Virus record (IMG/VR): IMGVR_UViG_3300045988_174472
DNA length: 39,665 nucleotides
Direction: 5' to 3' (one strand)
From: a virus
Below are positions 227 through 36,917 of the stretch, in pieces. The number at the start of each line of letters is the position of its first letter. Position 1 is the stretch's first letter. The notes beneath the pieces are model-generated. The model had not been told where the DNA came from, made no database searches, and saw nothing but the letters and a program-made list of their open reading frames with translations. A program made the translations under genes and the position numbers.

Positions 227-372
227 TTTAATATATATTTTTCTTATTATTTATAACTCTGCTTTTGAACTCCTTTTATGGTATAATGTTTTTTAGAGAA
301 ATTATAATCTAAGAGTGGGGTTTCATATATAGCCTTTGTTCCTGCGATAAGTAGGAAGGAGGTGTAAACTAT

Positions 373-528
373 ATGGAGCAAAAGAAGAAGATAATCATAA
401 CTGTTATAGTTATTCCAGTTATTATTGGTTTGGCTGTAAACTTTGTTTATGATAAAATAAAAAACCACTCTTACGGCAATAAGGGTGGCTTTCAAGTTGA
501 ATTCAACATAAAAGTTAAATTTGACTAA
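373..528 (+). CDS. Type I toxin-like small membrane peptide, copy 1 (51 aa)
   Basis: ATG at 373, TAA at 526-528; absent from the ORF track because it is under 60 aa. Translation MEQKKKIIITVIVIPVIIGLAVNFVYDKIKNHSYGNKGGFQVEFNIKVKFD has a hydrophobic helix and a Lys-rich tail. GGAGG at 358-362 and extended -10 TGGTATAAT at 279-287. Paralog of 1362..1526 and 4217..4396. Confidence 0.75.
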   Translation: MEQKKKIIITVIVIPVIIGLAVNFVYDKIKNHSYGNKGGFQVEFNIKVKFD

Positions 529-596
529 TATTATATTGTATATATAGAAATCACACTCTATTCCACTAGATTATAATTTCTCTTTTTTATTTCTAT
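457..596 (-). ncRNA. Candidate antisense antitoxin RNA, copy 1
   Basis: Minus-strand -10 TATAAT (plus-strand attata at 603-608), followed by the 5' module at 580->547. On the minus strand, hairpin 488-481/472-465 plus a T-run (plus-strand A-run 457-464) forms an intrinsic terminator inside the toxin ORF. The RNA is complementary to the 3' third of the toxin mRNA. Confidence 0.55.
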
Positions 597-679
597 GTTT
601 TTATTATACTACAAAATGCAGAAAAATACACAGTATATATTTTAATGTATTTTTTTCATATTATTATAATATATTTATA

Positions 680-1204: not shown

Positions 1205-1361
1205 AAATTTTGTTTTATTTATATAATAAAAACAAAGAAATGATTGAAGTATATAAAAACTTATATGGATATGATATAATAAATATAGGAATTTCAATTT
1301 ATAGAGTGGTGTTTCCATACTAAATATAAAGCCTACTTCTTAACGGAAGGAGGTGAGAAGT

Positions 1362-1526
1362 ATGGAACAAATGATAAATATTGTCATAGGTGCTATTTGC
1401 ACAATATGTCTTGGTCTATTGACTAACTACATATCCGACAAATTAAAAAGCCACTCTAGTTCTAGGAAAACTAAGAGTGGCGTGGAACTTGAAATAAAAA
1501 TCAAGTTCAAAATTACCAAAAATTAA
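1362..1526 (+). CDS. Type I toxin-like small membrane peptide, copy 2 (54 aa)
   Basis: Translation MEQMINIVIGAICTICLGLLTNYISDKLKSHSSSRKTKSGVELEIKIKFKITKN. GGAGG at 1349-1353, 8 nt before the ATG. Extended -10 TGATATAAT at 1272-1280. SD-sequestering hairpin cctacttc (1332-1339) / gaaggagg (1346-1353). Confidence 0.8.
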   Translation: MEQMINIVIGAICTICLGLLTNYISDKLKSHSSSRKTKSGVELEIKIKFKITKN

Positions 1527-1574
1527 AGTTTTGGAAACATCACTCTAGCGCAAATAGATTGAAGTTCCTTTTAT
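1442..1574 (-). ncRNA. Candidate antisense antitoxin RNA, copy 2
   Basis: Minus-strand -10 TATAAT (plus-strand attata at 1581-1586), with the 5' module at 1568->1533. Minus-strand terminator is gccactct (1450-1457) / agagtggc (1474-1481) followed by TTTTTAATT (plus-strand 1441-1449). It overlaps toxin codons about 28-54 and the 3' UTR. Confidence 0.6.
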
Positions 1575-1629
1575 ATTTATATTATACTACAAAATATATA
1601 AAAATAAACATTATATATTTAGTTATATT

Positions 1630-2913: not shown

Positions 2914-3840
2914 CTAGAATTTTATCTTTGCAACTTCAAATAATCCTTTAGCAGTAGCTAATTGTGCATCTTCAACTCTTTTGAACTCTTCATCGAACTC
3001 TAAATTTATAGATGTTCCTCCTGCAACATATATATCCATTTCTGATTTATTTATCCAAATATCTTCTATTCTTTGAGCTAAATTTTCAGAACCTAATAAA
3101 TAAGCCTTTGCCTTTAAATCATCGTAGTCATTAGATGTATCTATTTCATTAACATCCTTCATTATATCGTTATTTCTTAATGAATCTTGCACAGTAGTTA
3201 ATAATGTTCTGTTACCAAATTCAATTGTATTTGACATCTTATCATTAAATGTAAACCCTTTGTCAAAATAAGATAATTCTGTAGTTCTAAATCCAACTGA
3301 AACTAATCCAACAGGTTTATCCTCATTTATTTTACCACCTATAGCATGTATTAAAGCTGCATCACCTTCTCTAAGTATAGAAATATTATTTATATAAACT
3401 TCCTTAGTTGATCCACTTATTTTATTTTTAACCTTTATAGTTTTACCTTTATATGTTTCTATAACTTCTTTTAAAACTGATTTTCTATAGTTTTTATAAG
3501 GTACTCCTAACATAACATCAACTTTATCTTTTACAGCTATCTCACTAAGTGCTGCTGCAAATAATACTTCTACAGTATGACTTGTTTTACTATCTCTTGA
3601 ATTTCTTACTGGTACTTGTGATTCTTTCTCAGCTAATAATCCAATAAAGTAATTTTCATTTTTGTATTCTATGTAGATAGGTTTCTCACTTTCTTTATTC
3701 ATGTATTCAGATAGATCTATATCTCTACCTTCTCCAATTACTGATTTAAAAACTGCAACATGTTCAATGTTATTTTCTTCAGAGTATGCCTTAACATAAC
3801 CTCTCCCAAAGTCTAGTCCAATTTTTTGAATATTTTCCAT
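2914..3840 (-). CDS. parM: Actin-like plasmid segregation ATPase (ParM/StbA/Alp family)
   Basis: N-terminal phosphate-1 motif IGLDFGRGYVKA. Later motifs VGLVSVGFRTTE and VAGGTS are typical of the actin/ParM fold. 308 aa, adjacent to a repeat array. Confidence 0.8.
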   Translation of the reverse strand: MENIQKIGLDFGRGYVKAYSEENNIEHVAVFKSVIGEGRDIDLSEYMNKESEKPIYIEYKNENYFIGLLAEKESQVPVRNSRDSKTSHTVEVLFAAALSEIAVKDKVDVMLGVPYKNYRKSVLKEVIETYKGKTIKVKNKISGSTKEVYINNISILREGDAALIHAIGGKINEDKPVGLVSVGFRTTELSYFDKGFTFNDKMSNTIEFGNRTLLTTVQDSLRNNDIMKDVNEIDTSNDYDDLKAKAYLLGSENLAQRIEDIWINKSEMDIYVAGGTSINLEFDEEFKRVEDAQLATAKGLFEVAKIKF

Positions 3841-3856
3841 TTTAATATATACCTCC

Positions 3857-4073
3857 GTTGATATGTTGTTGAGTTCTTGTTAACTCTAAAATAATTGTAT
3901 AATATTTTAGTTAAGATGTCAACAATACATTAACTATTTCTTTATCCTATCGTTGATATATTGTTGAGTTCTTGTTAATTCTAAAATAGTTACATAATAT
4001 TTTAATTAAGATATTAACAATATATCAACCATTTATACTTTTATCATTAATACATTGTTGAGTTCTTGTTAAT
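3857..4073. repeat. parC: parC-like centromere: three ~95-bp units with direct and inverted half-sites
   Basis: Core ttgttgagttcttgttaa occurs at 3866, 3961 and 4055. Inverted partners (gttaatgtattgttgacatcttaa-like) lie at about 3911-3935 and 4005-4030. The array is immediately upstream of parM. Confidence 0.7.
3894..3922 (-). promoter_or_regulatory. parMR promoter embedded in parC
   Basis: On the minus strand, TTGACA (3922-3917), a 17-nt spacer, then TACAAT (3899-3894), about 50 nt upstream of the parM ATG. Confidence 0.5.
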
Positions 4074-4167
4074 CATTTTTTTTAATTATTATAAAAAAAG
4101 ATATAGAAATTAGTCTATATCTCAAAAAATAAGTTTAAAACTCCATTTATTCTGCTATAATATAAAA

Positions 4168-4312
4168 TATAAAAGGAATTGAAATCTATTTAGCAGTAGA
4201 GTGATGTTCCTAAAAATTATTTTTTAGAATTTTTAAGATTAAAATTAAGTTCAAAAAATTTTAACTTAATTTTAATCTCTAAGCCACTCTCTCGCATAGA
4301 GTGGCTTTTTAA
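4168..4312 (+). ncRNA. Candidate antisense antitoxin RNA, copy 3
   Basis: Extended -10 TGCTATAAT at 4153-4161 and 5' module at 4175-4210. Terminator gccactct (4283-4290) / agagtggc (4298-4305) plus TTTTT at 4306-4310. Fully antisense to the 3' part of toxin 3. Confidence 0.6.
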
Positions 4313-4396
4313 TTTGTCAGATATATAATTAGTCGTTAGACCAAGACATATTGCACCAATAGCACTTATAATACCGACAATTATCTTTTGTTCCAT
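4217..4396 (-). CDS. Type I toxin-like small membrane peptide, copy 3 (59 aa)
   Basis: Translation MEQKIIVGIISAIGAICLGLTTNYISDKLKSHSMRESGLEIKIKLKFFELNFNLKNSKK. It shares ICLGL.TNYISDKLKSHS with copy 2. SD is ggaaggagg. Extended -10 TGATATAAT on the minus strand (plus-strand 4476-4484). Confidence 0.8.
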   Translation of the reverse strand: MEQKIIVGIISAIGAICLGLTTNYISDKLKSHSMRESGLEIKIKLKFFELNFNLKNSKK

Positions 4397-4540
4397 ACTT
4401 CCTCACCTCCTTCCTGCAAAGAAGTAGGTAAGTTCTTGAATGAAACACCACTCTATAGATTTCAATTCCTCTATTATTATATCATATACATATTGATAGT
4501 ACTATGTTTTATACTATTAACATAAAAAATAGAGTAGAGT

Positions 4541-5049: not shown

Positions 5050-6300
5050 TTATTTGAATTTATTTCTTTGCGATTCTTGTAGATGTCTTTCTAATTCTTC
5101 AGGCGTATAATTTAGAAAAGCCGCATTAACATTATGAGCTTTATTTTTTAGTGATCTCATTTCATACTCTTGTTTCTGCTTTGAAATTATTTCTTCTTTA
5201 GATTTTTCTTCTTCATTTTCATTATAGTACCTAGCTTTTACTCTTGTAACTGATTCATTTAAATTTTTTAAATCATTTATTTTATTTTTCAAAGTCCCTT
5301 TGAAATAATTATATGACTTTACTTTTATTTTTTCCTCATCATCTTTTTCTAATGTAATAGTTATAGATTCTTGTAATATTTTTTTATATTTATTGTCTTT
5401 AAAGTCATAATTGCTAAAATCATTTTTAAAATATTCTAGTGTTTTAGCTGTAAATAGCTTTTTATTAGGCACATAAAATACATCTTTAATATTATTAGTT
5501 TCAACAGTAGTTATATCTTCATTTTCTATGTCTTCTTTATTTACATTTTTTACTTCAATAATTGGATTATCAATAGTATTTTTAAAATATATCTTCTTTT
5601 CGAAATCATATATAGTAAATTTTATTTCATCTACCTTTCTTCCATTTTTTATTTCATCTATACTAACTTCCATATTACCAAGTTTATTAATTTCTTTTAT
5701 TGCTTGACTTAGAACTCTTTGCTTAAAATTTTTATACTCTGGATATTTATTTTCAACACCTAAAACAAATCTTAATTGATCTATTTTAAAGTTTTTTATT
5801 ATTGTCATATCTGTTCTACTCCATAATCTCAATAATTCATATAATCTCTGTGCATAAAAACTTTTAAACTTAGTTAATATTTCTAAATTTAAAGGTGCAT
5901 AAACTGTATAATCAATTAAATGCCTGTATAGTCTATCAGCAAGTTTTATTTTAAATGTTTCTTTATTTACATTATATTCACTACCAGCGATTAAATTGTA
6001 ATCACATTCGATAGTATCACCATCTTCTTTCTTTTCAAATTCCAAAGATGTTTGTTTTAAAATTTGTATAGTCTTTTTTATATTAGATAAAGTTCTTTGA
6101 TTTTTATTTGGTATAAGTTTTTTTAGATCTTCTAATTTTACAGTACAACTTAGTTCCCCATTTTTTTCTTTTTGCGCAGTTAATAGACAGTAATAAAATA
6201 TTCTATTTTGAATTGCTGTAACCTCATAAGATGTATGTACTAATTGTTTTGACTGCATTAATAAATCTAAACATTTATCATTTGATGTAATTTCGCTCAT
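5050..6300 (-). CDS. rep: Theta-type plasmid replication initiator (Rep_3/RepB-like)
   Basis: 416 aa. The N-terminal half has the Rep_3 pattern (QSKQLVHTSYEVTAIQNRIFYYCL ... YAQRLYELLRLW ... LRFVLGVENKYPEYKNFKQRVLSQAIKEINK). An iteron array lies directly upstream. Confidence 0.75.
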   Translation of the reverse strand: MSEITSNDKCLDLLMQSKQLVHTSYEVTAIQNRIFYYCLLTAQKEKNGELSCTVKLEDLKKLIPNKNQRTLSNIKKTIQILKQTSLEFEKKEDGDTIECDYNLIAGSEYNVNKETFKIKLADRLYRHLIDYTVYAPLNLEILTKFKSFYAQRLYELLRLWSRTDMTIIKNFKIDQLRFVLGVENKYPEYKNFKQRVLSQAIKEINKLGNMEVSIDEIKNGRKVDEIKFTIYDFEKKIYFKNTIDNPIIEVKNVNKEDIENEDITTVETNNIKDVFYVPNKKLFTAKTLEYFKNDFSNYDFKDNKYKKILQESITITLEKDDEEKIKVKSYNYFKGTLKNKINDLKNLNESVTRVKARYYNENEEEKSKEEIISKQKQEYEMRSLKNKAHNVNAAFLNYTPEELERHLQESQRNKFK

Positions 6301-6338: not shown

Positions 6339-6485
6339 AAAATAAATATTTTTATTTTATATATTATAAAGAGTAATAGTTTGATCGATATTGTAATATT
6401 AAAAAGTTTAAAATTAATAAAATATTTTTTTCTTTATGACAATTATAGCTAAAAAAAAACTCTAAGGCAACAGTTTTTTTATTTT

Positions 6486-6604
6486 GTTACCTTTAGAGTA
6501 TCAAATTGTTACCTTTAGAGTATCAAATTGTTACCTTTAGAGTATCAAATTGTTACCTTAGAGTATCAAATTGTTACCTTAGAGTATCAAATTGTTACCT
6601 TTCG
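6486..6604. repeat. Iteron array (origin of theta replication): 5.5 tandem 21-22-bp units
   Basis: Unit gttacctttagagtatcaaatt occurs three times (6486, 6508, 6530). Unit gttaccttagagtatcaaatt occurs twice (6552, 6573). A partial unit follows. The units are contiguous with no spacers. Confidence 0.85.
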
Positions 6605-6733: not shown

Positions 6734-7363
6734 TTATTTCATAGTTCTAAAAACACCAGTTGCTATACCAATAATATCTACTTGAGAACTATCTAATATA
6801 ATTGGCTCCATAAAATCATTTTCAGGTTGAAGTTTAATTTTATCTCCTTCTTTAAAAAATCTTTTAACTGTAGGATATTTTTTGTACAAAAGAGCAAGAA
6901 CTATTTCTCCATTAAAGGCTACATTTTTTTTATCAACTATTAAGTAGTCTCCGTTTAACATTCCTGCATTAACCATACTATCTCCCTTAATTTGAAAAAT
7001 AAAATTATTTCGACCTTTTATTAAATTGGAAGGTAATGGTATATGTTCTTTAATATTATTTTCTGACAACATTGATTGTTCAATAGATACTTGGTCAACT
7101 AAAGGTAATCCAATAATATTATCATCTGATGCTCTTTTGCATCCATCTAATACTTCAATAGCTCTAGGTTTAGTAGGATCTTTCCTTATGTATCCTAAAT
7201 ATTCAAGTTTGCTTAGGTGCGAATGTACAGTTGATGGAGATTTCAACCCAACGGCACCACATATCTCTCTGATTGAAGGTGGGTAGCCTTTATCTAACAT
7301 ACATTGTTTAATAAAATATAAAATTTGCTCTTGTTTATAACTTAACTCTGGATTTTTAAACAT
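6734..7363 (-). CDS. LexA-like repressor (winged-helix N-domain plus S24 peptidase domain) with a non-canonical cleavage site
   Basis: N-terminus reads KGYPPSIREICGAVGLKSPSTVHSHLSKLEYLGYIRKDPTKPRAIEV. Catalytic GDS129M and VK167RF are present. The linker reads VDQVSIEQS where LexA proteins have G.VxAG.P. Confidence 0.8.
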   Translation of the reverse strand: MFKNPELSYKQEQILYFIKQCMLDKGYPPSIREICGAVGLKSPSTVHSHLSKLEYLGYIRKDPTKPRAIEVLDGCKRASDDNIIGLPLVDQVSIEQSMLSENNIKEHIPLPSNLIKGRNNFIFQIKGDSMVNAGMLNGDYLIVDKKNVAFNGEIVLALLYKKYPTVKRFFKEGDKIKLQPENDFMEPIILDSSQVDIIGIATGVFRTMK

Positions 7364-16482: not shown

Positions 16483-16983
16483 GTGGTGAATTTGAAAGAT
16501 GTTAAAAAAATAAAAAAGTATCAGGAAGCTGAAAAAGACTACGTTTTAGGTATGAGTATACCTGAAATATCTAGGAAGTATTCTGTAAAAGAAGCCACCG
16601 TAAAAACATGGATAAAAAGGCATAGGTGGAAGCGGACAGAAATTCAAAAAAAATCAGATAAGCAGACAGAAATAATAATTGATGGTAAAAATTTATACCA
16701 AATAAGAGAAGAACTTTTAAATCAATTAGAGATAGTAGGAAAAAAAAATATTCAAAGTATAATAGAAATAGAATCTTATATTGATAGTTTAAAGGATTAT
16801 TATAAATATAAAAATGATTTAGATGAAAGAGGTCATTTAATAGAAACTAAAAAAGGTATAAAACATAATGAAAGTGCAACTTTGAAAACAAAATCATCAA
16901 ATGAAAGAAGAAAGATATTAGAGTTCTTAGGATTAAATGACATTATAACTGTTAAAGAGGAAGATGACGATGAAGAGTTATAG
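16483..16983 (+). CDS. terS: Terminase small subunit
   Basis: N-terminal HTH GMSIPEISRKYSVKEATVKTWIKRHRW. Overlaps terL. The start is ambiguous (GTG 16483 or TTG 16492). Confidence 0.65.
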   Translation: MVNLKDVKKIKKYQEAEKDYVLGMSIPEISRKYSVKEATVKTWIKRHRWKRTEIQKKSDKQTEIIIDGKNLYQIREELLNQLEIVGKKNIQSIIEIESYIDSLKDYYKYKNDLDERGHLIETKKGIKHNESATLKTKSSNERRKILEFLGLNDIITVKEEDDDEEL

Positions 16984-18634
16984 TAAATACATCGATCCTT
17001 ATATAAATAAAATATTAAATAATGAAATAGAACACTGTAATGAGCAAGAATTGATGATTAACAATATAATAATTCCAGTTCTTGAAAGAGAAGATGTATA
17101 CATAGATGAAAAAAGAATAGAAGATGGTTTATCTTTACAGAAATACTTTCCATACAAGTTGATTGAGTGGGAAGTATTTTTATTTGCATTAATAGTAGGA
17201 GTATTCTTTGATAATGGAGATATAGTATTCAATGATATACGCATCATTGTTGGTAGAGGTAGTGGTAAAAATGGATTTATTTCATATTTAAGCTTTTATT
17301 TTTTAAGTCCACTTCATGGAATACGAGGATATAATATTGACTTATTAGCAAACAGTGAAGATCAAGCTAAAACAACATTTAAAGATGTATACGAAATAGT
17401 AAAAGAACCAGTTAAAAAATCATATGAAGAAAAGCTTAAGAAAAATTTTAATGCGACTAAAGAAGAAATAACAGGATTAAAGACAAAATCGGTTTTAAGA
17501 TTTAATACATCGTCTAAACGAGGCAAAGACTCAAAAAGAACAGGATGTATTATTTTTGACGAAAAACATGAATATGTAGATGTATCTAATATGAACACTC
17601 TTACATCTGGTTTAGGTAAAGTTAAACATGGAAGAACGATAACTATAACTACTAATGGTCATGTAAGAGGTGGAGTTTTAGACAGAGAATTAGATCAAGC
17701 TAAAGATATTTTAAAAGAATATAATCCTTTAAATAGAACTTTGATATTTTGGTGTAGGATTGAAGATGAAAATGAATGGAATGATCCAACAAAATGGATT
17801 AAAGCTATACCATCTTTAAATGATTTTACTGAGTTAAAATCAAGGATACAAAAAGAAGTAATTGATATGCCACATAATATGGACTATTTTCCAGAGTTTA
17901 TGGCTAAAAGAATGAACTTCCCTATAGGAAATAAAGAATTAGAAGTTGCTACATGGGATGATATTCTAGCAGCTAATAGACCTCTTATAGATTTAACAGG
18001 GTTTGAATGTGTAGGAGGTGTTGATTATGCTAAAACTAATGACTTTGTGGCTTGTTGTTTAGTATTTAGAGTAGATAAAGTATATTATGTTATCCATCAT
18101 ACATTTGTATGTATGAAATCAAGAGATTTACCAGGAATAAAAGCTCCATTAGAAAAGTATGCGAAAATGGGACATCTTACTTTTGTAAATGATGTTGAAA
18201 TATCTCCTGACTATGTAGTTAATTGGTTCTATGAAATGGGTTCTAAATATAACATTTTAAAAATTGCTATAGATAATTTCAGATATTCTTTATTAAACTC
18301 AACATTTAAGAAAATAGGGTTTGATGCTTTTGAAAAAAAGAACATAAGACTAATTAGACCTAACGATATAATGAAAGTTGCTCCGATTATTAATTCTGTA
18401 TTTATAAATCATAACTTTGCATGGGGAGATGTATCGGAAGATGGTACAAATCCTATAATGTGTTGGTATACACATAACACTAAAAAAGTTGAGAAAAACG
18501 GAAATATGACATATGAAAAAATAGAGCCTAATTATAGAAAAACAGATGGATTCATGGCTTTAGTTAATGCAATGATTATCTCTGATGAAATAAAAGATAA
18601 AATAAAAATACCAAAGATTAGAGTTATTACTTAG
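16964..18634 (+). CDS. terL: Terminase large subunit
   Basis: Walker A VGRGSGKNGF, Walker B-like CIIFDEKHE, and a C-terminal nuclease half. 556 aa. Confidence 0.9.
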   Translation: MTMKSYSKYIDPYINKILNNEIEHCNEQELMINNIIIPVLEREDVYIDEKRIEDGLSLQKYFPYKLIEWEVFLFALIVGVFFDNGDIVFNDIRIIVGRGSGKNGFISYLSFYFLSPLHGIRGYNIDLLANSEDQAKTTFKDVYEIVKEPVKKSYEEKLKKNFNATKEEITGLKTKSVLRFNTSSKRGKDSKRTGCIIFDEKHEYVDVSNMNTLTSGLGKVKHGRTITITTNGHVRGGVLDRELDQAKDILKEYNPLNRTLIFWCRIEDENEWNDPTKWIKAIPSLNDFTELKSRIQKEVIDMPHNMDYFPEFMAKRMNFPIGNKELEVATWDDILAANRPLIDLTGFECVGGVDYAKTNDFVACCLVFRVDKVYYVIHHTFVCMKSRDLPGIKAPLEKYAKMGHLTFVNDVEISPDYVVNWFYEMGSKYNILKIAIDNFRYSLLNSTFKKIGFDAFEKKNIRLIRPNDIMKVAPIINSVFINHNFAWGDVSEDGTNPIMCWYTHNTKKVEKNGNMTYEKIEPNYRKTDGFMALVNAMIISDEIKDKIKIPKIRVIT

Positions 18635-18649
18635 AAAGAAGGTGATAGT

Positions 18650-19813
18650 ATGGCTTGGTATGATTTTTTAGAAAAACTGATTCCATCTAAAAAAAATAAC
18701 ACGACAAAAGTTATTATGACACCGTTAATTCAAGAAATATATTTTAAAGAAATGGCTTTATATACTGCGGTAAGTTATATAGCTAATGCAATATCAAAAT
18801 GTGAAATAAAAACTTATAGAAATGGAGTGGAAATTAAAGAAGATTCATATTTTCTTATGAACATATCTCCAAATGAAAATTATAATGCAAGTAAGTTTTG
18901 GCATAAAGTTATTGAAAAAATGTACTATGATGGAGAAGCTTTAGTTATAAGTAAAGAAAATAAATTATTTTGTGCAGATAGTTTTTATGTAGATGAAGAT
19001 CCTATTGAAGGAAATATATATAAAAATATAGTTGTTGATGGAAAAGATATAGAAGGAATTTTTCATGCTAAAGAAGTTTATTTATTTGAATTAGACAATA
19101 AAAAAGTCAAAGATTTAATTAACGGAATATATCAAGGATATAGTGAATTAATTGGATTTGCACAAAAAATTTATATGAAATCAAATGGTTCAAAATATAA
19201 AGTTAAAATGCCTATGACGAAAATAGGAGATGATGAATTTAATGAAGCATTTGAAAAAGCGATAGAAGATCAATTAAAAATTTTTATTAATAGCAACGAA
19301 GCTGTTTACACTGAATATGAAGGCTATGAGCTTATAGATATGACTCAAAATGGAAAGAGTAAAGATGTAAAAGATATTATAGATTTAAGAGAAGAAATAT
19401 TTAAAATTGTAGCTCAAGCGTGTAATATTCCTTTATCATTAATGTCAGGTAATATTACTAATATTAATGATGTAGTCAAAGCATTTATAACATTCGCAAT
19501 AGATCCAATTGCAATTATGATGAGTGATGAATTGACTAGAAAACAAGGAAGTAATAGAAAACATAGTTGTAATGCATGGAAACAAGGTCAATATTTTAAA
19601 GTAGATACGTCTAAAATTAATCATATTGACATATTAGAATCTGCTAATAATATAGATAAATTAATAGCAAGTGGATTTGTGTGTATAGATGACTTAAGAA
19701 GTTTAACTGGAATGAACTTAATAAATAATGACTTTAGTAAGACTCATTTTATAACTAAAAATTATGATACTATTGAAAATCGATTGAAAGGAGAGGATAT
19801 AAAAAATGAATAA
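18650..19813 (+). CDS. Portal protein (HK97 family)
   Basis: Size and gene order (terL-portal-protease-capsid), plus portal-typical central region. Confidence 0.85.
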   Translation: MAWYDFLEKLIPSKKNNTTKVIMTPLIQEIYFKEMALYTAVSYIANAISKCEIKTYRNGVEIKEDSYFLMNISPNENYNASKFWHKVIEKMYYDGEALVISKENKLFCADSFYVDEDPIEGNIYKNIVVDGKDIEGIFHAKEVYLFELDNKKVKDLINGIYQGYSELIGFAQKIYMKSNGSKYKVKMPMTKIGDDEFNEAFEKAIEDQLKIFINSNEAVYTEYEGYELIDMTQNGKSKDVKDIIDLREEIFKIVAQACNIPLSLMSGNITNINDVVKAFITFAIDPIAIMMSDELTRKQGSNRKHSCNAWKQGQYFKVDTSKINHIDILESANNIDKLIASGFVCIDDLRSLTGMNLINNDFSKTHFITKNYDTIENRLKGEDIKNE

Positions 19814-20543
19814 GCAATATTATTCATTACAAAAATCAGATAATGAAGCTAATATAGTCATTTATGGGAATATATCATCGTGGAGTTGGAATGAAAGAAA
19901 TACATCAGCGTATAATCTTTCAAAGCAATTAGAAGATCTTGATGTTGATTTCATAAATATATATATTAACTCATATGGTGGAGAAGTCGCAGAAGGATTA
20001 GCTATTTATAATACATTAAAAAGACATAAAGCAACAGTTAGAACATACTGTGACGGTTTCGCATGTTCTATAGCCAGTGTTATATTTATGGCTGGAGATG
20101 AAAGAATAATGTCTAATGCTAGTTTATTAATGATACATAATGCTTGGACAAATATTTCTGGTAATGCAAATGAACTTAGAAAACAGGCGGATGATTTAGA
20201 AAAAATAACTCAAGCATCTATAAATGTATATTTACAAGATGTGAATATATCAGAGGAAGAATTAAGGCAACTTTTAGATAATGAAACATGGCTAACGCCT
20301 CAAGAAGCATTTGAAAAAGGATTTGCAACTACCATAACAAATGAAAAGAAAAATGAATCAGTAAGCCAAGATATTAGAAATTATTTAATGTCTATGATAC
20401 TAGAAAGACAAGAACAAGAAAAAGAAAAGAAATTAGAAGAATTACATCAAAAATTAAAAGAAGGCGAAAAAGAACCAAATAAACAAATAATAAGCGGTTC
20501 TTTTTTTAATGCAATAAATAAAATAGTGGGAGGAGAAAAATAA
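19806..20543 (+). CDS. Head maturation protease, ClpP-like (S14)
   Basis: YINSYGGEVAEGLAIYNTLK...GFACSIASVIFMAGDERIMSNASLLMIHNAW, with Ser and His in ClpP context. Confidence 0.85.
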   Translation: MNKQYYSLQKSDNEANIVIYGNISSWSWNERNTSAYNLSKQLEDLDVDFINIYINSYGGEVAEGLAIYNTLKRHKATVRTYCDGFACSIASVIFMAGDERIMSNASLLMIHNAWTNISGNANELRKQADDLEKITQASINVYLQDVNISEEELRQLLDNETWLTPQEAFEKGFATTITNEKKNESVSQDIRNYLMSMILERQEQEKEKKLEELHQKLKEGEKEPNKQIISGSFFNAINKIVGGEK

Positions 20544-21784
20544 TGCCAATATCAGTAAATACTAAAATACAAGACCCAGGAGTAGGAGCAGTTGTCCAAA
20601 CTGCATTAGGAAGTGGAGCGCAAGAAGGTGATAATTTAGCTATGGAAGAAGCTCTTTTAATATTTAAACAACATATAATTGATGAAGTTAAGGCTGATTC
20701 TGATAAGTATAACGAAGAAGCAGATAGAGCTGTATTAGCACAAAGAGGATATAGACAATTAACAAATAAAGAAAAAGTTTGGTATCAAAAATTTATAGAA
20801 GCATCAAAAAGTAGAACACCAAAGCAAGAATTCTCGAATTTTTTAACATCTCCAGAAGGTATAATGCCAGAAACTATAATAGAAGATGTATTTAAAGATT
20901 TAAGAGAAGAGCATCCATTATTAAACAAGATAAATTTTACTCATACAAAATTTTTAACTAAATGGGTATTGAATGATCATACAAGAGATACTGCATTCTG
21001 GGGCGAATTAAACTCAGACATAGAGAAAGAGATAACATCAGCATTCAAAATTGTAGATATATCTCAAAATAAGTTATCTGCATTTGCTGCAATACCTAAA
21101 GATATGCTAGATATAGGACCAACATTTATAGATAAATACATAAGAGAAGTTTTAAAAGAAGCTATTTCTTCAGGACTTGAAAAAGCTATAATAGATGGAA
21201 CAGGTAAGAATGAACCTATAGGATTAAATAGAAATATATCTAAAGGAGTAAGTGTTTCAGATGGAGTTTATCCTAAAAAAGATACAATATCTGTAACATC
21301 TTTTTCTAAAGAGGAATATCCGAAATTAGTATCTAAATTAATTAAAACAGAAAATGAAAGAATGAGAAAAATAGAAAAGAACCCAGTTACACTTATATGT
21401 AATCCTATTGATTATTATAATAAAATAATGCCTGCAACAACTGTTGAAACATTTGGAGGATACAATCGTAATGTTTTTGTGATTCCTACTGATGTTATAA
21501 AATCTAATTTTATACCTGAGGGTGAAGCTATACTATGTTTAATAGAAGAGTATTTTATGGGTATGGGTGGATCTAAAGATGGAATTATAGAGTATTCAGA
21601 TGAGTATAAATTCTTAGAAGATATGAGGTATTACAAAATAAAAACTTTTGGAGATGGTAAAGCTTATGATAATACGTCAGCGTTATTATTAGATATATCA
21701 GAATTAGAACCAACATATACAACAGTTAATATTAATACAGATACTCAAACTTTAGCTAAACAAGCATCAAGAAAGACTAAGTAA
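20543..21784 (+). CDS. Major capsid protein (HK97 fold)
   Basis: 413 aa, directly after the protease, with an N-terminal delta-domain-like coiled region. Confidence 0.8.
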   Translation: MPISVNTKIQDPGVGAVVQTALGSGAQEGDNLAMEEALLIFKQHIIDEVKADSDKYNEEADRAVLAQRGYRQLTNKEKVWYQKFIEASKSRTPKQEFSNFLTSPEGIMPETIIEDVFKDLREEHPLLNKINFTHTKFLTKWVLNDHTRDTAFWGELNSDIEKEITSAFKIVDISQNKLSAFAAIPKDMLDIGPTFIDKYIREVLKEAISSGLEKAIIDGTGKNEPIGLNRNISKGVSVSDGVYPKKDTISVTSFSKEEYPKLVSKLIKTENERMRKIEKNPVTLICNPIDYYNKIMPATTVETFGGYNRNVFVIPTDVIKSNFIPEGEAILCLIEEYFMGMGGSKDGIIEYSDEYKFLEDMRYYKIKTFGDGKAYDNTSALLLDISELEPTYTTVNINTDTQTLAKQASRKTK

Positions 21785-24937: not shown

Positions 24938-27900
24938 ATGTCTAATAAAAAAGAAGAAGTAGGAGAATTAGCCATATCCCTTAGTTTTGAGTCTCAGAGT
25001 GCAGATAAACAAATTTCATCATTAAATAAACTTATAAATAGAACTGAAAAAGAGTTTAAATCTGCAGCTAAAGGCGTTAAAAACTTTGAAGATACATATC
25101 AAGGCTTAGATTCAAAAATACAAAAATTAACTAAACAACTTGATGCAAATAATAAAAAATTAGAAATACAAGAAAAAGAGCATAAATCAGTTGCTAAAGC
25201 CCTTGAAGCAAGTAAAAAGAAATTAGAAGAAATGGACGAAAGCATTGATAAAAACTCTAAAGAGTGGAAAGATCAAGCTGATCTAGTTCAGAAAAATGCT
25301 GATAAATTGGCGAAACTATCAAGTGATATAACAATAACTAAAGGTAATATATCAAAATTAACAACGGAGCTTAATGAATCTAAAACTAAGTTTGAACAAT
25401 TAGGAAATAAAACTGAAACACTAGATGAAAAATTAGAGAATATATCAAGAGAAGCAGAATTAACTCAATCAGAATTTAATAAATTAGGAACACAGTTAAA
25501 TCAAAATGGTACATACTTTCAAAAGTTAGGTAACGAAATAAATAAACTTTCATCTGAAATTAAATCAGGTACTAGTAAAATAAATGCATATGAAAATGAA
25601 ATTGATAAATTATCAAGTACTTTAAATAAACAAAAAGATGAATACTCTCAATTAGAATCTAAAATACAAACATACTCTCAACATCTTGATAGAGCATCAA
25701 ATATGTATGGAGAAAATAGTTCACAAGTTAATGAATACAGGCAGAAACTATTACAATTAAAAGATTCATTTAATACTCTTGAAAATGAAATAAATCAAAA
25801 TGAGAATGAATTAAAAGAATATAAAACTGCTCTTAATAATACTCAAGCAGAGGTAAAAGAACTATCTAATGAACTTTTAAAAATGCCCTTTGATAAAATT
25901 AGTAGTAGTTTAAATGGTGTTGGTAATGATTTAAAATCAATTGGTCAATCTATGACAACAGGAGTAACAGCACCGATTACATTAGCAGGTGCTGCAGCAA
26001 CTAAAGCTGGAACTGATTTTACAAGTGCAATGAGTAAACTTCAAGCAACATCTGGTATTGCAGATAAAACTGCTACATCCTATGTAAATCTTGAGAAAAA
26101 GGCTTTAGAAATGGGAAGCTCAACATCGTTTAGTGCTAGTGAAGCAGCAGATGGATTGACATATCTTGCATTAGCTAGTTGGGATGTAGAAACACAAATT
26201 GAAAGAATAGAACCCGTTCTTAGAGCTGCAGAAGCAGGTGGAATGGATTTAGCAAGATGTTCTGATTTAGTAACTGATAGTATGAGTAGTGCTTCGATTG
26301 CATCAGAAGACTTTGCTACTTATTTAGACATAGTCGCACAAGCTCAAAGAAAATCAAATACATCTATGGAACAAATGCTTGAAGCTTATACAATTGCAGG
26401 TGGAATGTTTAGTTCATTAAATATTCCTTTAGAAGAATCAGGTGCTTTATTAGGGATACTTGCAAATAGAGGCACTAAAGGTTCAGAAGCTGGAAATGCT
26501 CTTATATCTGTATTTTCAAATTTAATTACAGAAACTGGTCAAGCAGGAACAGCACTTGAGGCAATGGGTATTTCTTTATACGACTCAACTGGAAAACAAA
26601 GAAATATGGTTGAAGTATTAAAAGAAATGGCTAAAAAATTAGGTGTAACGGCTGATGGAACTTCTAATTTAACTGAACAACAGAAGCAGCAATATGCTGC
26701 AATGGTTGGTGGCAAAACGCAGTTTGATACATTAATGAAACTTCTGTCTGGTGTATCAAATGAATACGACGAGTTACATAGTCAATTAATTAATAGTAAC
26801 GGTGCTTTAGAAGAAATGGCAACTATTATGAAAGATAACCTTGGCGGTAAAATAGATAATATGAAATCTGCTATAGAGGGAGCATTAATTGAAGCATTTA
26901 AAGCTCTTGAGCCTACTTTAGAAAAAATAGTAGGATGGATAACAGAAACTGCAAACTGGTTTAGTAATTTAGATGAAGAAGCGCAAAAAAATATAGTAAC
27001 CATAGCTGGAGTGGCCGCTGCTACTGGTCCTTTACTTGCCGTACTAGGACAAATTTTAATTGTAGGTGGGAATGCAGTAAACTTATTTGGAGCCTTAAAG
27101 ACAGCTGGTTCCGGGAATATAAAAATGTTTGGATTATTAAAAAATGCAATTGGATTAGTTTCTGGACCAGCAGGTTTTGTTGCTTTAATTGGAATGTTAG
27201 TGGCTCTTATGGCTAAGTTAGGTGATAATGAAAATAAATTATCTGACTTACAAGAAAAATGGGGAACATTTGGGAAGGTTATCGGACAAATTTGTGAGCA
27301 TATGACTGGTACTGTACAATTATCTGTTGGTAATATAGGTATTTTACTATCTACACTAGGGAAAACTATATTAGCAATTTTAAAAGGTGACTTTAAATCT
27401 ATTGATGATATTTGGGCAGAAGGCTGGGCAAAAGTAGAAAATAATACGGCAATAGCAATGTCTAACATCAACTATGAAAGTTCAAATGGGATTGCATTAA
27501 TGCGAGAAATGACAGAAATTGAATTAAACAATTTAACGGGTACATTTGATGTAGCATTAAAAGAATTACCAAAACTTACAGCTGATAATGCTAGCGAAAT
27601 GGCAGATACATTTGTAACTAGAATGCAAGGTTTAGATGCAGATACATTAACTATCCTTCGAGGCACTTCAGACACTATGGCGGTATTATTTGAAGGTATA
27701 TATGAAAATATGAGTAAAGAAGATGCTCATAATAAATTTACTGCTAATCTTGAAAGTATGGCCAAAAGTGGAGAGTTTACATCAGATAAAATAAGTCAAG
27801 ACATTTCAGATGCAATGAATCTAATAGATAAAAATGTAATGGATGGATCTGAAAGAGTAAAACAATCTGCTCAAAATATGTTTGATAACTTAACTACTAT

Positions 27901-29095
27901 ATCTCAATTTGGTATGGATGCTACAGTTGAAAATGTAGTAAGTTCTGTAAATAATATGAGTGACGAAACTATAGCTCAATTAGCATCAATGGGTGGTCAT
28001 TGGGAGACATTATTCGGAGGAATAGCATTAACAGGAAAAGATGCTATAGGAGATATGGAAGGTCATATAAAAGGCAGACTTCAAGAATTATCTCAAACAA
28101 GTCCTCAATTTGTTGCAGAAATGGAAGCTCAAATGTCGGCTTATTTTGAACAAGCTAATACAAATGGTTCTACTAGTATAGATGAGTTAAGCAATAATGT
28201 TGAAGCTGATTCTAAACAAATTGAACAAAGTATGGACATTCATACTAAAGATGGTACTAATGCTCTTAATACTAATTTAGATAAAGGGGCTAAAGATGTA
28301 TCTAAATCTTTAAATGCTATAAAAAATACTACTAATACAGATATGGGTTCAGCTAACAATGCTATGCAACAAAATGCAACAACAATGTACAAAGGTGTAA
28401 GTACTTCATTCTATAAAATGGATCAAAAAGCAAAACAAAGCTCAACAGATATGATGAAGGGCGTTAATACATCTACGCATAAAATGGCAAATGAATCTAG
28501 ACAAGATGCAAGTCATATGCATAATGGGGTAAGAGATAGTGCTAGTGCAATGTCTTTAAAAGTACGTCAGAGTGCATCAGAAATGTATAAAGGAGTTACG
28601 ACTAGTACTCGTAAAATGGCTGATGCAGCAATTTCAGATTGGAATAGAGTTAGAAAAGCTTACTCTAAACCGATTACAGGAACTGTTACTAAGACAACAG
28701 TTAATAAAAGTATTTCTGCACAGTCTAAAGTTAGAAGTATTCCTACTAATAATGATATACCTACAATAGCTAGCTTAGAGCCAACATACCAATTAAGAAC
28801 ACCAGATATTAGTGATTTTGCTATATCAAGTAGATATTATAATTCAAGTTATTCTGAGAGAGGATCTATAACTAAAGCTAAACATAATGATTTAGATAAA
28901 ATTAATAATAAAAAAACTAATGAATTATTAAATAAACTTATACAACTTTTAGACGGTAAAAATGAAAAAACTCAACCAATACATATTCACCTAAATGTTG
29001 ATGGAAAACCATTAACAGAAGTTATATTTCCATATTTGCCTGATAAATTAAGACGTAATGAAATATTGAATAATCGTAGGAATGGAGATTTATAA
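24938..29095 (+). CDS. Tape measure protein
   Basis: 1385 aa with long coiled-coil N-terminal region, central hydrophobic Gly/Ala-rich segments and a repetitive C-terminus (M.KGV.TS..KM repeats). Confidence 0.9.
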   Translation: MSNKKEEVGELAISLSFESQSADKQISSLNKLINRTEKEFKSAAKGVKNFEDTYQGLDSKIQKLTKQLDANNKKLEIQEKEHKSVAKALEASKKKLEEMDESIDKNSKEWKDQADLVQKNADKLAKLSSDITITKGNISKLTTELNESKTKFEQLGNKTETLDEKLENISREAELTQSEFNKLGTQLNQNGTYFQKLGNEINKLSSEIKSGTSKINAYENEIDKLSSTLNKQKDEYSQLESKIQTYSQHLDRASNMYGENSSQVNEYRQKLLQLKDSFNTLENEINQNENELKEYKTALNNTQAEVKELSNELLKMPFDKISSSLNGVGNDLKSIGQSMTTGVTAPITLAGAAATKAGTDFTSAMSKLQATSGIADKTATSYVNLEKKALEMGSSTSFSASEAADGLTYLALASWDVETQIERIEPVLRAAEAGGMDLARCSDLVTDSMSSASIASEDFATYLDIVAQAQRKSNTSMEQMLEAYTIAGGMFSSLNIPLEESGALLGILANRGTKGSEAGNALISVFSNLITETGQAGTALEAMGISLYDSTGKQRNMVEVLKEMAKKLGVTADGTSNLTEQQKQQYAAMVGGKTQFDTLMKLLSGVSNEYDELHSQLINSNGALEEMATIMKDNLGGKIDNMKSAIEGALIEAFKALEPTLEKIVGWITETANWFSNLDEEAQKNIVTIAGVAAATGPLLAVLGQILIVGGNAVNLFGALKTAGSGNIKMFGLLKNAIGLVSGPAGFVALIGMLVALMAKLGDNENKLSDLQEKWGTFGKVIGQICEHMTGTVQLSVGNIGILLSTLGKTILAILKGDFKSIDDIWAEGWAKVENNTAIAMSNINYESSNGIALMREMTEIELNNLTGTFDVALKELPKLTADNASEMADTFVTRMQGLDADTLTILRGTSDTMAVLFEGIYENMSKEDAHNKFTANLESMAKSGEFTSDKISQDISDAMNLIDKNVMDGSERVKQSAQNMFDNLTTISQFGMDATVENVVSSVNNMSDETIAQLASMGGHWETLFGGIALTGKDAIGDMEGHIKGRLQELSQTSPQFVAEMEAQMSAYFEQANTNGSTSIDELSNNVEADSKQIEQSMDIHTKDGTNALNTNLDKGAKDVSKSLNAIKNTTNTDMGSANNAMQQNATTMYKGVSTSFYKMDQKAKQSSTDMMKGVNTSTHKMANESRQDASHMHNGVRDSASAMSLKVRQSASEMYKGVTTSTRKMADAAISDWNRVRKAYSKPITGTVTKTTVNKSISAQSKVRSIPTNNDIPTIASLEPTYQLRTPDISDFAISSRYYNSSYSERGSITKAKHNDLDKINNKKTNELLNKLIQLLDGKNEKTQPIHIHLNVDGKPLTEVIFPYLPDKLRRNEILNNRRNGDL

Positions 29096-36092: not shown

Positions 36093-36917
36093 ATGGATTT
36101 AAATATACATGCAGGGCACAATCCAGACGATAAGTCTGCTTGCGGAGCTATAGGATTAATAAAGGAATCAACAGAAAATAGAAATGTTAAAAATGATTTA
36201 ATAGATATATTAAAAGATAAAAATAATACTGTATATGATTGTACAGTAAATAACGGAACGTCTGTATCAGATGTAATCAATAAAATAGTTGCTAAATGTA
36301 ATGCACATTCAGTAGATTTAGATGTATCAATACACTTTAACAGTGGAGCTGAAGATAAAAATGGAAATGGCAAGAGTACTGGAGTAGAAGTGTTAGTTTA
36401 TAAAATGAGTGGTCCAGCATATGAAGCGGCAGTAAGAATTTGTAAAGAAATTGAAGCTTTAGGATATAAAAATAGAGGAGTTAAGCAAAGAACTGATTTA
36501 TCTTTCTTAAAGAAAACAAAAGCTCCAGCATTATTAGTTGAGTGTTGCTTTGTAGATGATAAAGATGATATAGATTTATATAATTCTAAGTCAATTGCTA
36601 AAGCTATAGCTCAAGGAATTTTAAATAAAAAAATATCAACATCAGTTCCACAACATACACCAGTTCCAGATTCAGAAATATTCTATAGAGCAGTATCAGG
36701 AAGCTTTAATAATAAAAATAATGCACTTGATAGAAAAGACAAATTAGATAAAGATGAATTTAGTGGTGTATTCTTAGAAGCATTTGTAAAAGATGAAACT
36801 ACCTGGTACAGAGTTATCGCCGGATCATTCAAAGATAGAAAACTAGCAGAGCAAAGAATAAAAGACTTATCTGATAAAGGATATGACGGAGGATTTATAG
36901 CTGCATTTAGAAAATAA
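36093..36917 (+). CDS. Endolysin: N-acetylmuramoyl-L-alanine amidase (Amidase_3) with C-terminal SPOR-like domain
   Basis: Amidase_3 pattern IHAGHN...SIHFNS...GVEVL...LLVECCFVD. C-terminus FYRAVSGSF...WYRVIAGSF is SPOR-type. Confidence 0.9.
   Translation: MDLNIHAGHNPDDKSACGAIGLIKESTENRNVKNDLIDILKDKNNTVYDCTVNNGTSVSDVINKIVAKCNAHSVDLDVSIHFNSGAEDKNGNGKSTGVEVLVYKMSGPAYEAAVRICKEIEALGYKNRGVKQRTDLSFLKKTKAPALLVECCFVDDKDDIDLYNSKSIAKAIAQGILNKKISTSVPQHTPVPDSEIFYRAVSGSFNNKNNALDRKDKLDKDEFSGVFLEAFVKDETTWYRVIAGSFKDRKLAEQRIKDLSDKGYDGGFIAAFRK

Follow-up and report, generated by a model that had tools for sequence, protein, structure and literature searches.

The 39,665-nucleotide (nt) virus record IMGVR_UViG_3300045988_174472 (the whole of which is referred to here as the window) contained three small, related gene cassettes, the second of which (cassette 2, positions 1272-1586) is the subject of this analysis. 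The original prediction, made from the letters of the window, had called cassette 2 a type I toxin-antitoxin (TA) cassette in which the antisense RNA is convergent and RNA structure occludes the ribosome-binding site (RBS), and this call was borne out by full-length homology to a validated family of Clostridioides difficile. With a probability of roughly 0.8, cassette 2 is a type I TA module of the C. difficile CD2517.1/CD0956.2-RCd8/9/10 family, which likely acts as an addiction module and whose toxin mRNA is closed in the manner described below. Its function was inferred from homology and structure, on the basis of sequence elements, homologous loci, predicted folds, and covariation.

The toxin promoter on the plus strand carried an extended -10 element (TGATATAAT, 1272-1280), in which the TG and TATAAT positions were invariant or nearly so among 59 relatives. 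Transcription was predicted to start at about A1287, with the same spacing after TATAAT as the start that the published 83-nt 5' untranslated region (5'UTR) of CD0956.2 gives in phage phiCDKH02 (locus L029). The leader that follows on the plus strand was divided into several parts. The first (1287-1313; inverted repeats I1 and I5, full-length minimum free energy (MFE) fold) is the 5' arm of a long-distance 5'-3' helix and mimics the 5' end of the antitoxin RNA. It shares U1313 in the full-length fold with the anti-AUG strand UUCCAUACU (1313-1321; perfect 9-nt inverted repeat I25, MFE folds), which is the 5' arm of an outer leader helix. An A/U-rich single-stranded linker (AAAUAUAAA, 1322-1330; unpaired probability >0.7), variable in sequence among relatives and bordered by conserved flanks, joins this strand to the anti-Shine-Dalgarno (anti-SD) strand gCCUACUUCu (1331-1340), the CCUAC core of which was at least 90% conserved within an otherwise variable leader. 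The Shine-Dalgarno (SD) region GGAAGGAGGU (1345-1354, core GGAGG at 1349-1353) provides the 3' arm of the inner hairpin in the MFE folds, and its GGAGGTG positions were invariant or at least 90% conserved in alignments of 32 and 59 sequences. The 3' arm of the outer helix (AGUAUGGAA, 1359-1367, plus strand; inverted repeat, MFE folds, and relatives) contains the start codon (1362-1364). The toxin open reading frame (ORF) runs from this ATG to a stop codon ending at 1526 on the plus strand, and its translation was exactly the 54-aa peptide quoted in the original prediction, with a hydrophobic N-terminal helix (INIVIGAICTICLGLL) and a Lys-rich tail (KLKSHSSSRKTKSGVELEIKIKFKITKN), as in family toxins of about 30-60 aa with a hydrophobic N-terminus and a Lys-rich, charged C-terminus.

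The convergent antitoxin unit on the minus strand also appeared where it had been predicted. Its -10 box (TATAAT on the minus strand, 1581-1586) read as an ATTATA that, like the toxin -10 box, was invariant or nearly so in the 59 relatives. The predicted antitoxin RNA of about 134 nt (1441-1574, minus strand; fold z-score -5.2) is antisense to the last ~28 codons of the toxin and to its 3'UTR, and ends at an intrinsic terminator within the toxin ORF (1441-1483, minus strand), which in the antisense-strand fold consisted of a GC-rich stem at 1450-1481 and a U-run to about 1441. Across the relatives 87.5% of the alignment cells of this terminator were paired, 6 of its 12 pairs covaried, and the basal pair was A-U in 15 sequences and G-C in 15. 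A second conserved hairpin (GAACUUGA/UCAAGUUC, 1485-1512, strand not assigned) was found by folding in the antitoxin/toxin overlap; it encodes ELxIKIKF, and its loop is a candidate kissing site. The toxin 3'UTR on the plus strand (1536-1569) contains the 3' arm of the 5'-3' helix in two parts (1536-1547 and 1555-1569) that flank a single-stranded bulge, GCGCAAA, at 1548-1554. When folded locally, the same stretch formed a weak toxin terminator hairpin followed by UUUU. The predicted toxin mRNA is about 288 nt long (about 1287-1574), with a 5'UTR of about 75 nt. Cassette 2 therefore showed, from sequence and prediction only, a cis-antisense RNA in the expected range of ~130-140 nt with its own promoter and an in-ORF terminator.

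Homology searches connected this locus to known mobile elements. BLASTN matches were found in C. difficile phages (phiC2, CDMH1, phiMMP01/03, phiCD508, and others) and in plasmids of C. difficile (87% identity in pTW11), Paraclostridium sordellii, P. bifermentans, and Terrisporobacter. A DNA hidden Markov model (HMM) built from the three cassettes of the window recovered the whole unit of ~330 nt in all fetched loci (nhmmer), with matches in plasmids, phages, and genomes of Clostridioides, Paraclostridium, Romboutsia, Terrisporobacter, Faecalimicrobium, Tepidibacter, and others, including phiCD508 (E 9e-28) and phiCDKH02 (E 1e-30). The toxin showed 37-38% identity to C. difficile phage toxins in BLASTP (E 3e-9 and 3e-8), and related proteins were detected down to E 2e-25. 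Family membership was anchored through published primer sequences and phage homologues, not through the strain 630 sequences. The primers in Supplementary Data 2 of Peltier 2020 (PMC7699646) give the C-terminus of CD2517.1 as KIKLNKKQH, a 3'UTR stretch as TAATATTTAGTTAATGAAACTTCACTCTAGG, and a leader stretch as CTACAATTTATAGAGTGGAGTTC. Both stretches (the 3'UTR part taken from primer JP363) were identical in phiCD508 and phiCDKH02/CDMH1, and the phiCD508 C-terminus, KIKFNKKRH, has the same residue as the primer-derived CD2517.1 sequence at 7 of the last 9 codons and a different one at 2.

The C. difficile type I TA modules CD2517.1-RCd8, CD2907.1-RCd9, and CD0956.2-RCd10 have been described (Maikova 2018, PMC5961336), and the family has also been reported on plasmids of C. 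difficile and P. sordellii (Maikova 2018, PMC5961336; Peltier 2020, PMC7699646). Its peptides are toxic membrane peptides, each neutralized specifically by its cognate RNA, the toxin mRNA has a half-life of 35 min vs. 13 min for the antitoxin, and the modules stabilize plasmids and prophages. By analogy, the peptide of cassette 2 would be toxic and neutralized by its antisense RNA, with a stable toxin mRNA and an unstable antitoxin. Published rapid amplification of cDNA ends (RACE) gave toxin mRNAs of 298-306 nt, 5'UTRs of 83-88 nt, antitoxins of 130-134 nt (134 nt for RCd9 and RCd10), and overlaps of 131-134 nt, with the toxin 3' end at the antitoxin start. The predicted geometry of cassette 2 fits these values, with an antitoxin of ~134 nt and a toxin 3' end near the antitoxin start. 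Cassette 2 shared with the C. difficile family homologous DNA and protein over the whole cassette, the K-SHS...SG-EL-IKIKF motifs, the convergent layout, an antitoxin of ~134 nt that ends inside the ORF, and a location on mobile elements (phages and plasmids). On the other hand, it belongs to a diverged subfamily (MEQ...TNYI[SY]DKLK) that occurs mainly outside C. difficile, in Paraclostridium, Romboutsia, Terrisporobacter, and gut metagenomes, its 5'UTR is ~75 nt instead of 83-88 nt, and it is one of three paralogues beside the Rep and ParM genes of a phage-plasmid. No CRISPR array was found in the window; linkage to CRISPR is frequent in the family without defining it.

It is scarcely credible that the product of the ORF is an ordinary small membrane protein of the phage (for instance, a holin-like or superinfection-exclusion peptide) and that the antisense signals arose by chance in AT-rich DNA. 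Promoter-like hexamers were indeed no more common than in shuffled sequences (36 found vs. 40 expected), Pfam-A gave only sub-threshold noise for the toxin, Rfam 15 gave no match at the gathering threshold and only chance-level sub-threshold hits up to E 10, and the only protein family matched was phrog_738 of PHROGs (E 6e-10), which is annotated as "unknown function." However, the antisense -10 box and the in-ORF terminator were conserved in 32-59 relatives, the terminator covaried, the cassette is homologous to experimentally validated toxin/antitoxin pairs, and the three paralogues in this one replicon all kept the convergent layout.

Further observations were made in the fetched loci. Phage phiCDKH02 contained a second, shorter cassette (L029:1065-1359) ~250 bp downstream of the CD0956.2-like one, which overlaps a 35-aa ORF annotated CDIF630_01087 and is probably the CD0956.3-RCd14-type "short variant" of Peltier 2020 (PMC7699646). 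A 33-aa ORF of Staphylococcus nepalensis CCM 7045 (L018:592-693, MLYMLVVISFVLGFISSVIAGIVANYISDKLKG) carries the (T/A)NYISDKLK motif, and the match of the cassette HMM was confined to the SD and the N-terminal part (E 1e-7). The ORF may be distantly related to the cassettes, from outside the Peptostreptococcaceae, or the motif may have arisen by convergence. Chimeric cassettes were present in metagenome contigs (L053:379-729, L067:400-751, L073, and L074). In L053 the leader and N-terminus of cassette 2 were joined to the terminator and 3'UTR of cassette 3, with the junction in the common AAAAAGCCACTCT, and in L067 and L073 the arms came from two Romboutsia types. Such cassettes reflect either true recombination or chimeric assembly.

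The strongest and best-covarying feature of cassette 2 was the pairing of the two ends of the toxin mRNA, which the original prediction had missed. The full-length mRNA folded with -98.2 kcal/mol (z-score -9.8), and its first 27 nt (1287-1313) formed a 27-bp helix with both parts of the 3'UTR arm around the 7-nt bulge. This helix contributed approximately -30 kcal/mol in cassette 2 and -16 to -36 kcal/mol (mean -26.6) in 32 relatives. About 90% of the cells paired, in 32 and then in 59 sequences, vs. 41-49% when the partner was slid by 1-3 columns (42-48% for the 59 sequences); the 5' arm was paired in 92-94% of cells, and the outer helix in 94% of cells in the 59 relatives. Changes on both sides were seen in 16-18 pairs (32 and 59 sequences) vs. 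~10 in column shuffles, and none of the 500 shuffles reached the observed count (16 vs. 9.8 ± 1.6 for the 59 sequences). The outer end-pairing helix alone showed compensatory changes in 10 of 15 pairs, some with three pair types, and the per-locus table contained at least eight arm haplotypes, each self-complementary. In phiCDKH02 (CD0956.2-like), the published 83-nt 5'UTR puts the transcription start exactly on the first base of the complementary arm (AGCAAGAAG), and the published mRNA 3' end at the antitoxin start site would sit in the complementary stretch of the opposite end. Since antitoxin and 3'UTR are exactly complementary, the toxin 5' leader in effect copies the antitoxin 5' end.

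The matching ends could also be a DNA-level inverted repeat rather than an RNA helix, either gene-converted copies of promoter and leader or the terminal repeats of a small mobile cassette. Both -10 boxes are indeed reached by the inverted repeat (arms 1270-1302/1554-1586), many different contexts contain the cassette as a unit of ~330 bp, and the chimeras, unless they are assembly products, show that paralogues recombine. However, most of the differences between the arms were transitions producing G.U on the toxin strand (63 non-Watson-Crick cells with G.U vs. 15 with A.C), a bias not expected of a DNA repeat, which therefore indicates an RNA helix of the toxin strand. Moreover, a 7-8-nt insertion was always located in the 3' arm, where it coincides with the position of the antitoxin hairpin loop, and the published phiCDKH02 transcript ends fall on the complementary arms as described above. 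A DNA-level origin is thus distinctly unlikely.

A second structure that had gone unnoticed was the perfect 9-bp helix of UUCCAUACU with AGUAUGGAA (1313-1321/1359-1367), which buries the AUG and encloses the SD hairpin in the MFE folds of both the leader alone and the full mRNA. In the 59 sequences 94% of its cells were paired, with an exchange between C-G (27 sequences) and U-A (21 sequences), and the outer AUG helix and an inner RBS hairpin formed in the leader of every relative when folded individually. Opening the whole RBS, from SD to AUG, cost 12.6 kcal/mol vs. 8.0 ± 2.3 kcal/mol in shuffled leaders, 4 of 200 of which were at least as high. In a like-for-like comparison across ORFs, the three toxin genes required 11.9 (cassette 2), 11.9, and 14.7 kcal/mol, more than any of the window's 27 other ORFs (mean 4.9 ± 2.4, maximum 11.1 kcal/mol). 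With a predicted mRNA of 288 nt, a 5'UTR of 75 nt, and an RBS opening cost of ~12 kcal/mol, cassette 2 resembles family members in having an mRNA of ~300 nt with a long 5'UTR and a sequestered RBS. As a testable structural model, the start-codon helix would be the main translational block.

The original prediction had instead placed the SD-sequestering hairpin at the center. The pairing itself was confirmed: cctacttc (1332-1339) and gaaggagg (1346-1353) paired at 7 of 8 positions with a single A.G mismatch (A1335/G1350), and both the leader alone and the full mRNA had the hairpin in their MFE folds, where two G.U pairs lengthened it to 1331-1340/1345-1354. The RBS was indeed buried; of the three conserved structures, however, this hairpin was the weakest, and it was no better than those of shuffled leaders. 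Opening the SD cost 5.1 kcal/mol vs. 4.1 ± 2.0 kcal/mol in shuffles of the upstream leader, and 57 of 200 shuffles were at least as good, because the purine-rich SD easily finds pyrimidine partners; the hairpin is therefore not claimed to exceed chance by energy. Pairing in the register of cassette 2 comprised 78% of cells in the 59 relatives, with three positions unpaired in 23-27 of the 59 sequences and no register common to the family. A shifted register was found in ~40% of relatives, including cassette 1. The same pair was predicted as conserved in cassette 3, where cctacttc and gaaggagg, separated by tttgcag, were indeed present, and as degenerate in cassette 1, which was imprecise: cassette 1 has a shifted register (UUCCUGC/GUAGGAA plus CCUUU/GAGG). 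In cassette 1 and its relatives UUCCUAC pairs with GUAGGAA directly upstream of the SD core, leaving GGAGG weakly paired.

These data bear on the possibility that the local anti-SD/SD hairpin is the principal translational lock and that the remaining mRNA structure is incidental. The conservation of CCUAC, the presence of the hairpin in the MFE folds, and the perfect CCUCC/GGAGG or CCUCCC/GGGAGG of C. difficile variants would fit such a lock. It is nonetheless rather unlikely, given the chance-level energy and the inconstant register of the hairpin, the cassette-1-type relatives that leave GGAGG largely free yet retain an AUG helix of 11-13 bp, and the concentration of energy and covariation in the AUG helix and the end pairing.

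The closed toxin mRNA with paired ends and occluded AUG and SD is thus supported as a structural model, against which several points weigh in addition to the energy and register of the SD hairpin. RNAalifold gave zero consensus pairs on a fresh MAFFT re-alignment of 27 leaders, since the subfamilies differ in register and MAFFT misplaces small indels; per-sequence folds and pair counts over full-cassette alignments were therefore used instead. The covariation counts ignore kinship among the relatives, the transcript ends of cassette 2 are predictions, and the arms do not match in some metagenomic relatives that are chimeras (L053 and L067). The local terminator hairpin is a competitor of the end pairing, and the MFE models leave co-transcriptional folding and ribosomes out of consideration. 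Finally, antitoxin binding left the RBS opening cost of cassette 2 unchanged in silico (11.6 vs. 11.5 kcal/mol).

In the proposed mechanism, the extended -10 promoter would drive the toxin mRNA of ~288 nt, and the convergent promoter an antisense RNA of ~134 nt (1574 to 1441) that is fully complementary to the toxin 3'UTR and last codons. The mRNA would be closed by three stacked elements, namely the end pairing, the 9-bp AUG helix, and the inner hairpin of the SD with CCUACUUC. With the AUG and SD buried and the ends paired, translation would therefore be low by default. The end pairing would make both mRNA ends double-stranded and thus protected from 5' and 3' exonucleases, which may give the mRNA the long half-life required of a killer module; most of the antitoxin target would also be hidden by this pairing.

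Binding of the antitoxin probably nucleates where complementary loops are exposed. Exposed stretches of the toxin mRNA (1548-1553, 1522-1526, 1509-1515, and 1493-1500) coincided with exposed antitoxin loops, and the accessible bulge GCGCAAA is complementary to the loop UUUGCGC of the antitoxin 5' hairpin. This coincidence makes the variable, GC-rich bulge/loop pair the likely site of nucleation and specificity, and the pair differed among the three co-resident cassettes. Once bound, the antitoxin would take the place of the look-alike 5' leader on the 3'UTR in a long duplex that leads to decay, while the RBS would stay closed throughout. Each cassette also had four occurrences of the heptamer AGAGUGG/CCACUCU (one in the leader, two in the ORF, and one in the 3'UTR), so that alternative pairings are possible during transcription.

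After loss of the antitoxin, toxin synthesis would require the leader to open, most likely by cleavage in the A/U linker (1322-1330), a candidate endonucleolytic 5' processing site at which cleavage would remove the anti-AUG strand. The translationally inert primary transcript and the processed, 5'-truncated active form of the original prediction are plausible in these terms. Alternatively, the module could work as a switch of the hok/AapA1 type, in which the 5'-3' pairing keeps the mRNA inert until 3' exonucleolytic trimming yields a translatable, antitoxin-binding refold. The strong, conserved end pairing is reminiscent of hok (fbi element) and aapA1, and the principle has been described for type I systems. 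However, blocking or removing the 3'UTR in silico did not open the RBS, either in cassette 2 (13.3 vs. 11.6 kcal/mol) or on average in the 32 relatives (13.5 vs. 11.7 kcal/mol). Sequestration of the SD and AUG is local and needs no more than the leader to form, and no other fold of the leader was found in which the RBS is free. Under constrained folding the RBS stayed closed in the free, antitoxin-bound, 3'-truncated, and nascent states. Such a 3'-trimming switch is therefore not supported and appears quite improbable; the closed RBS of the models is compatible with activation by 5' processing and argues against activation from the 3' end.

The antitoxin may also constrain the peptide. The arms of its terminator stem (AAAAAGCCACUCU/AGAGUGGC, 1446-1483 and the equivalent columns in all relatives) encode the most conserved toxin motifs, K(S/N)HS (KSHS in cassette 2) and KSG. 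Because the antitoxin hairpins encode KSHS, KSG, and ELxIKIKF, part of the apparent protein conservation may be RNA conservation. Taken jointly, these features suggest that the toxin mRNA of the family carries a copy of the antitoxin 5' end, with the covarying end helix of 27-36 bp serving in cis as a "self-antitoxin mimic," the bulge setting specificity, and the peptide motifs being dictated by RNA. The helix would protect both mRNA termini and gate antitoxin access; the hypervariable bulge of 7-8 nt alone would be exposed, match the antitoxin loop, and let three paralogues coexist in one replicon; and KSHS, KSG, and ELxIKIKF would be dictated by the antitoxin terminator and second hairpin, not by protein function. 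This joint proposal is tentative, and we consider it nearly as likely to hold as to fail.

Comparison with other type I systems showed partial likeness. In the par system of pAD1 from Enterococcus faecalis (Fst, RNA I-RNA II), a 5' stem-loop (5'-SL) of the toxin mRNA sequesters the SD, an upstream helix (5'-UH) sequesters the extreme 5' end and stabilizes the mRNA, and the two convergent RNAs first contact each other by kissing at their terminator loops (PMC7472228). The par system is a Gram-positive plasmid addiction module, as cassette 2 would be, and the 5'-SL and 5'-UH logic is analogous to cassette 2. In contrast, there is no sequence homology, the par antitoxin also pairs with 5' direct repeats over the RBS whereas that of cassette 2 covers the 3' part only, the par RNAs use one bidirectional terminator whereas the terminators of cassette 2 are separate, and the toxin 5' end of cassette 2 pairs with the very 3'UTR that the antitoxin targets. 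The cassette 2 toxin lacked the PXXXG motif of Fst and its antitoxin stops short of the RBS, which places it outside the par/Fst family.

In hok/Sok of plasmid R1 and aapA1/IsoA1 of Helicobacter pylori, a 5'-3' interaction locks the stable full-length mRNA in an inert form with poor antitoxin access, the antitoxin targets the 5' region, and 3' trimming triggers a refolding that opens the RBS. Cassette 2 shares with these only the lock of the 5' and 3' ends (27-bp helix, approximately -30 kcal/mol, strong covariation) and the SD sequestration. It differs in that its antitoxin targets the 3' end and not the 5' leader, and in that loss of the 3' arm leaves the RBS closed in silico; there is also no homology.

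In bsrG/SR4 and txpA/RatA of Bacillus subtilis prophage, antitoxin and toxin mRNA overlap at the 3' end of the latter, well away from the RBS, and in bsrG/SR4 the antitoxin bound there promotes decay and tightens the RBS pairing. Cassette 2 has the same 3'-end overlap without homology to either system, and we know of no description of end-to-end pairing with antitoxin mimicry for bsrG/SR4 or txpA/RatA. In 16 of 32 relatives the RBS became harder to open, by more than 1 kcal/mol, when the antitoxin target was blocked, a tendency only, which recalls the RBS tightening of bsrG/SR4. Such tightening was rejected for cassette 2, where the RBS cost did not change on antitoxin binding. The comparison of the C. 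difficile family with bsrG/SR4 had been drawn before (Maikova 2018, PMC5961336).

The two paralogues kept the same convergent arrangement as cassette 2, as predicted. Cassette 1 (279-608, plus strand) contained a 51-aa ORF at 373-528, and its antitoxin region was 52% identical to that of cassette 2. Cassette 3 (4156-4484, minus strand) contained a 59-aa ORF at 4396-4217 and an antitoxin region 56% identical to that of cassette 2, with the antitoxin promoter at 4134-4161 and a terminator equivalent to that of cassette 2 at 4281-4307, both on the plus strand. The mean column identity of the three cassettes was 72% over the alignment, and the antitoxin-coding parts were only 51-56% identical.

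The mobile element that carries them is a phage-plasmid of ~40 kb, and the cassettes lie near its replication and partition genes, which encode a Rep3 initiator (5050-6300) and an actin-like (ALP/ParM-type) partition protein (2914-3840). Genes for a LexA-like S24 repressor, terminase large subunit, portal, capsid, tape-measure protein, and amidase endolysin were also present in the window; together, the phage-plasmid genes were located at 2914-3840, 5050-6300, 6734-7363, 16964-21784, 24938-29095, and 36093-36917. Near-identical elements of ~40 kb were found in IMG/VR and gut metagenomes. When the first 20 kb of the window were compared with plasmids by megablast, only the Rep gene and cassette 2 matched, indicating that PLSDB does not contain the replicon itself. 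At 3853-4073, immediately upstream of the gene for the actin-like partition protein, a 95-bp unit containing inverted repeats is present in ~2.3 tandem copies, which likely represent a parC-type centromere or operator; they also account for weak palindromic Rfam hits at 3912-3974. Between the Rep3 and LexA-like genes, 5.5 copies of the 22-bp repeat TTGTTACCTTTAGAGTATCAAA (97% matches; 6484-6602) are probably the iterons of the origin.

Other features were observed around the first two cassettes. A perfect 25-nt inverted repeat (TTCATAAATTAATAAATGAACAAAA, 1139-1163/1182-1206, 18-nt spacer), both arms of which belong to near-palindromes, is located ~70 nt upstream of the cassette 2 promoter and could serve to bind a regulator or as a bidirectional terminator. 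Between cassettes 1 and 2, a 59-aa ORF on the minus strand (680-859) matched phrog_2329 (E 8e-18). On visual inspection it resembles a swapped-hairpin domain of the AbrB/SpoVT/MazE type (...LTLPITMVRELGI...), and it may encode a protein resembling a transition-state regulator or a type II antitoxin. A 19-bp perfect AT-rich hairpin with A-run and T-run flanks (AAAAAAGTACTGTTTTATAAATATATGAAACAGTACTTTTTT, 181-222) looks like a bidirectional terminator that would insulate cassette 1 from upstream transcription.

The position of three cassettes beside replication and partition genes fits a maintenance role, and cassette 2 most likely acts as an addiction module by post-segregational killing. The cassette itself is ordinary and broadens the known range of the C. 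difficile type I TA family to include a phage-plasmid and other Peptostreptococcaceae. Both the family and the prediction that its RBS is sequestered had already appeared in print, the latter as "data not shown," and the searchable literature (open-access papers only) yielded no account of the end pairing, of the AUG helix, or of covariation in them. The present analysis adds a testable model for the whole family, with an end-to-end lock, the start-codon helix as the main block, and the variable bulge/loop as the feature that likely determines specificity. The bulge/loop rule could guide the design of orthogonal cassettes, and the chimeric cassettes, if real, would be natural mismatched-arm "experiments" on the 5'-3' helix. 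With at least eight compensating haplotypes and natural chimeras, the family offers a clean natural data set for the co-evolution of overlapping RNA and peptide constraints.

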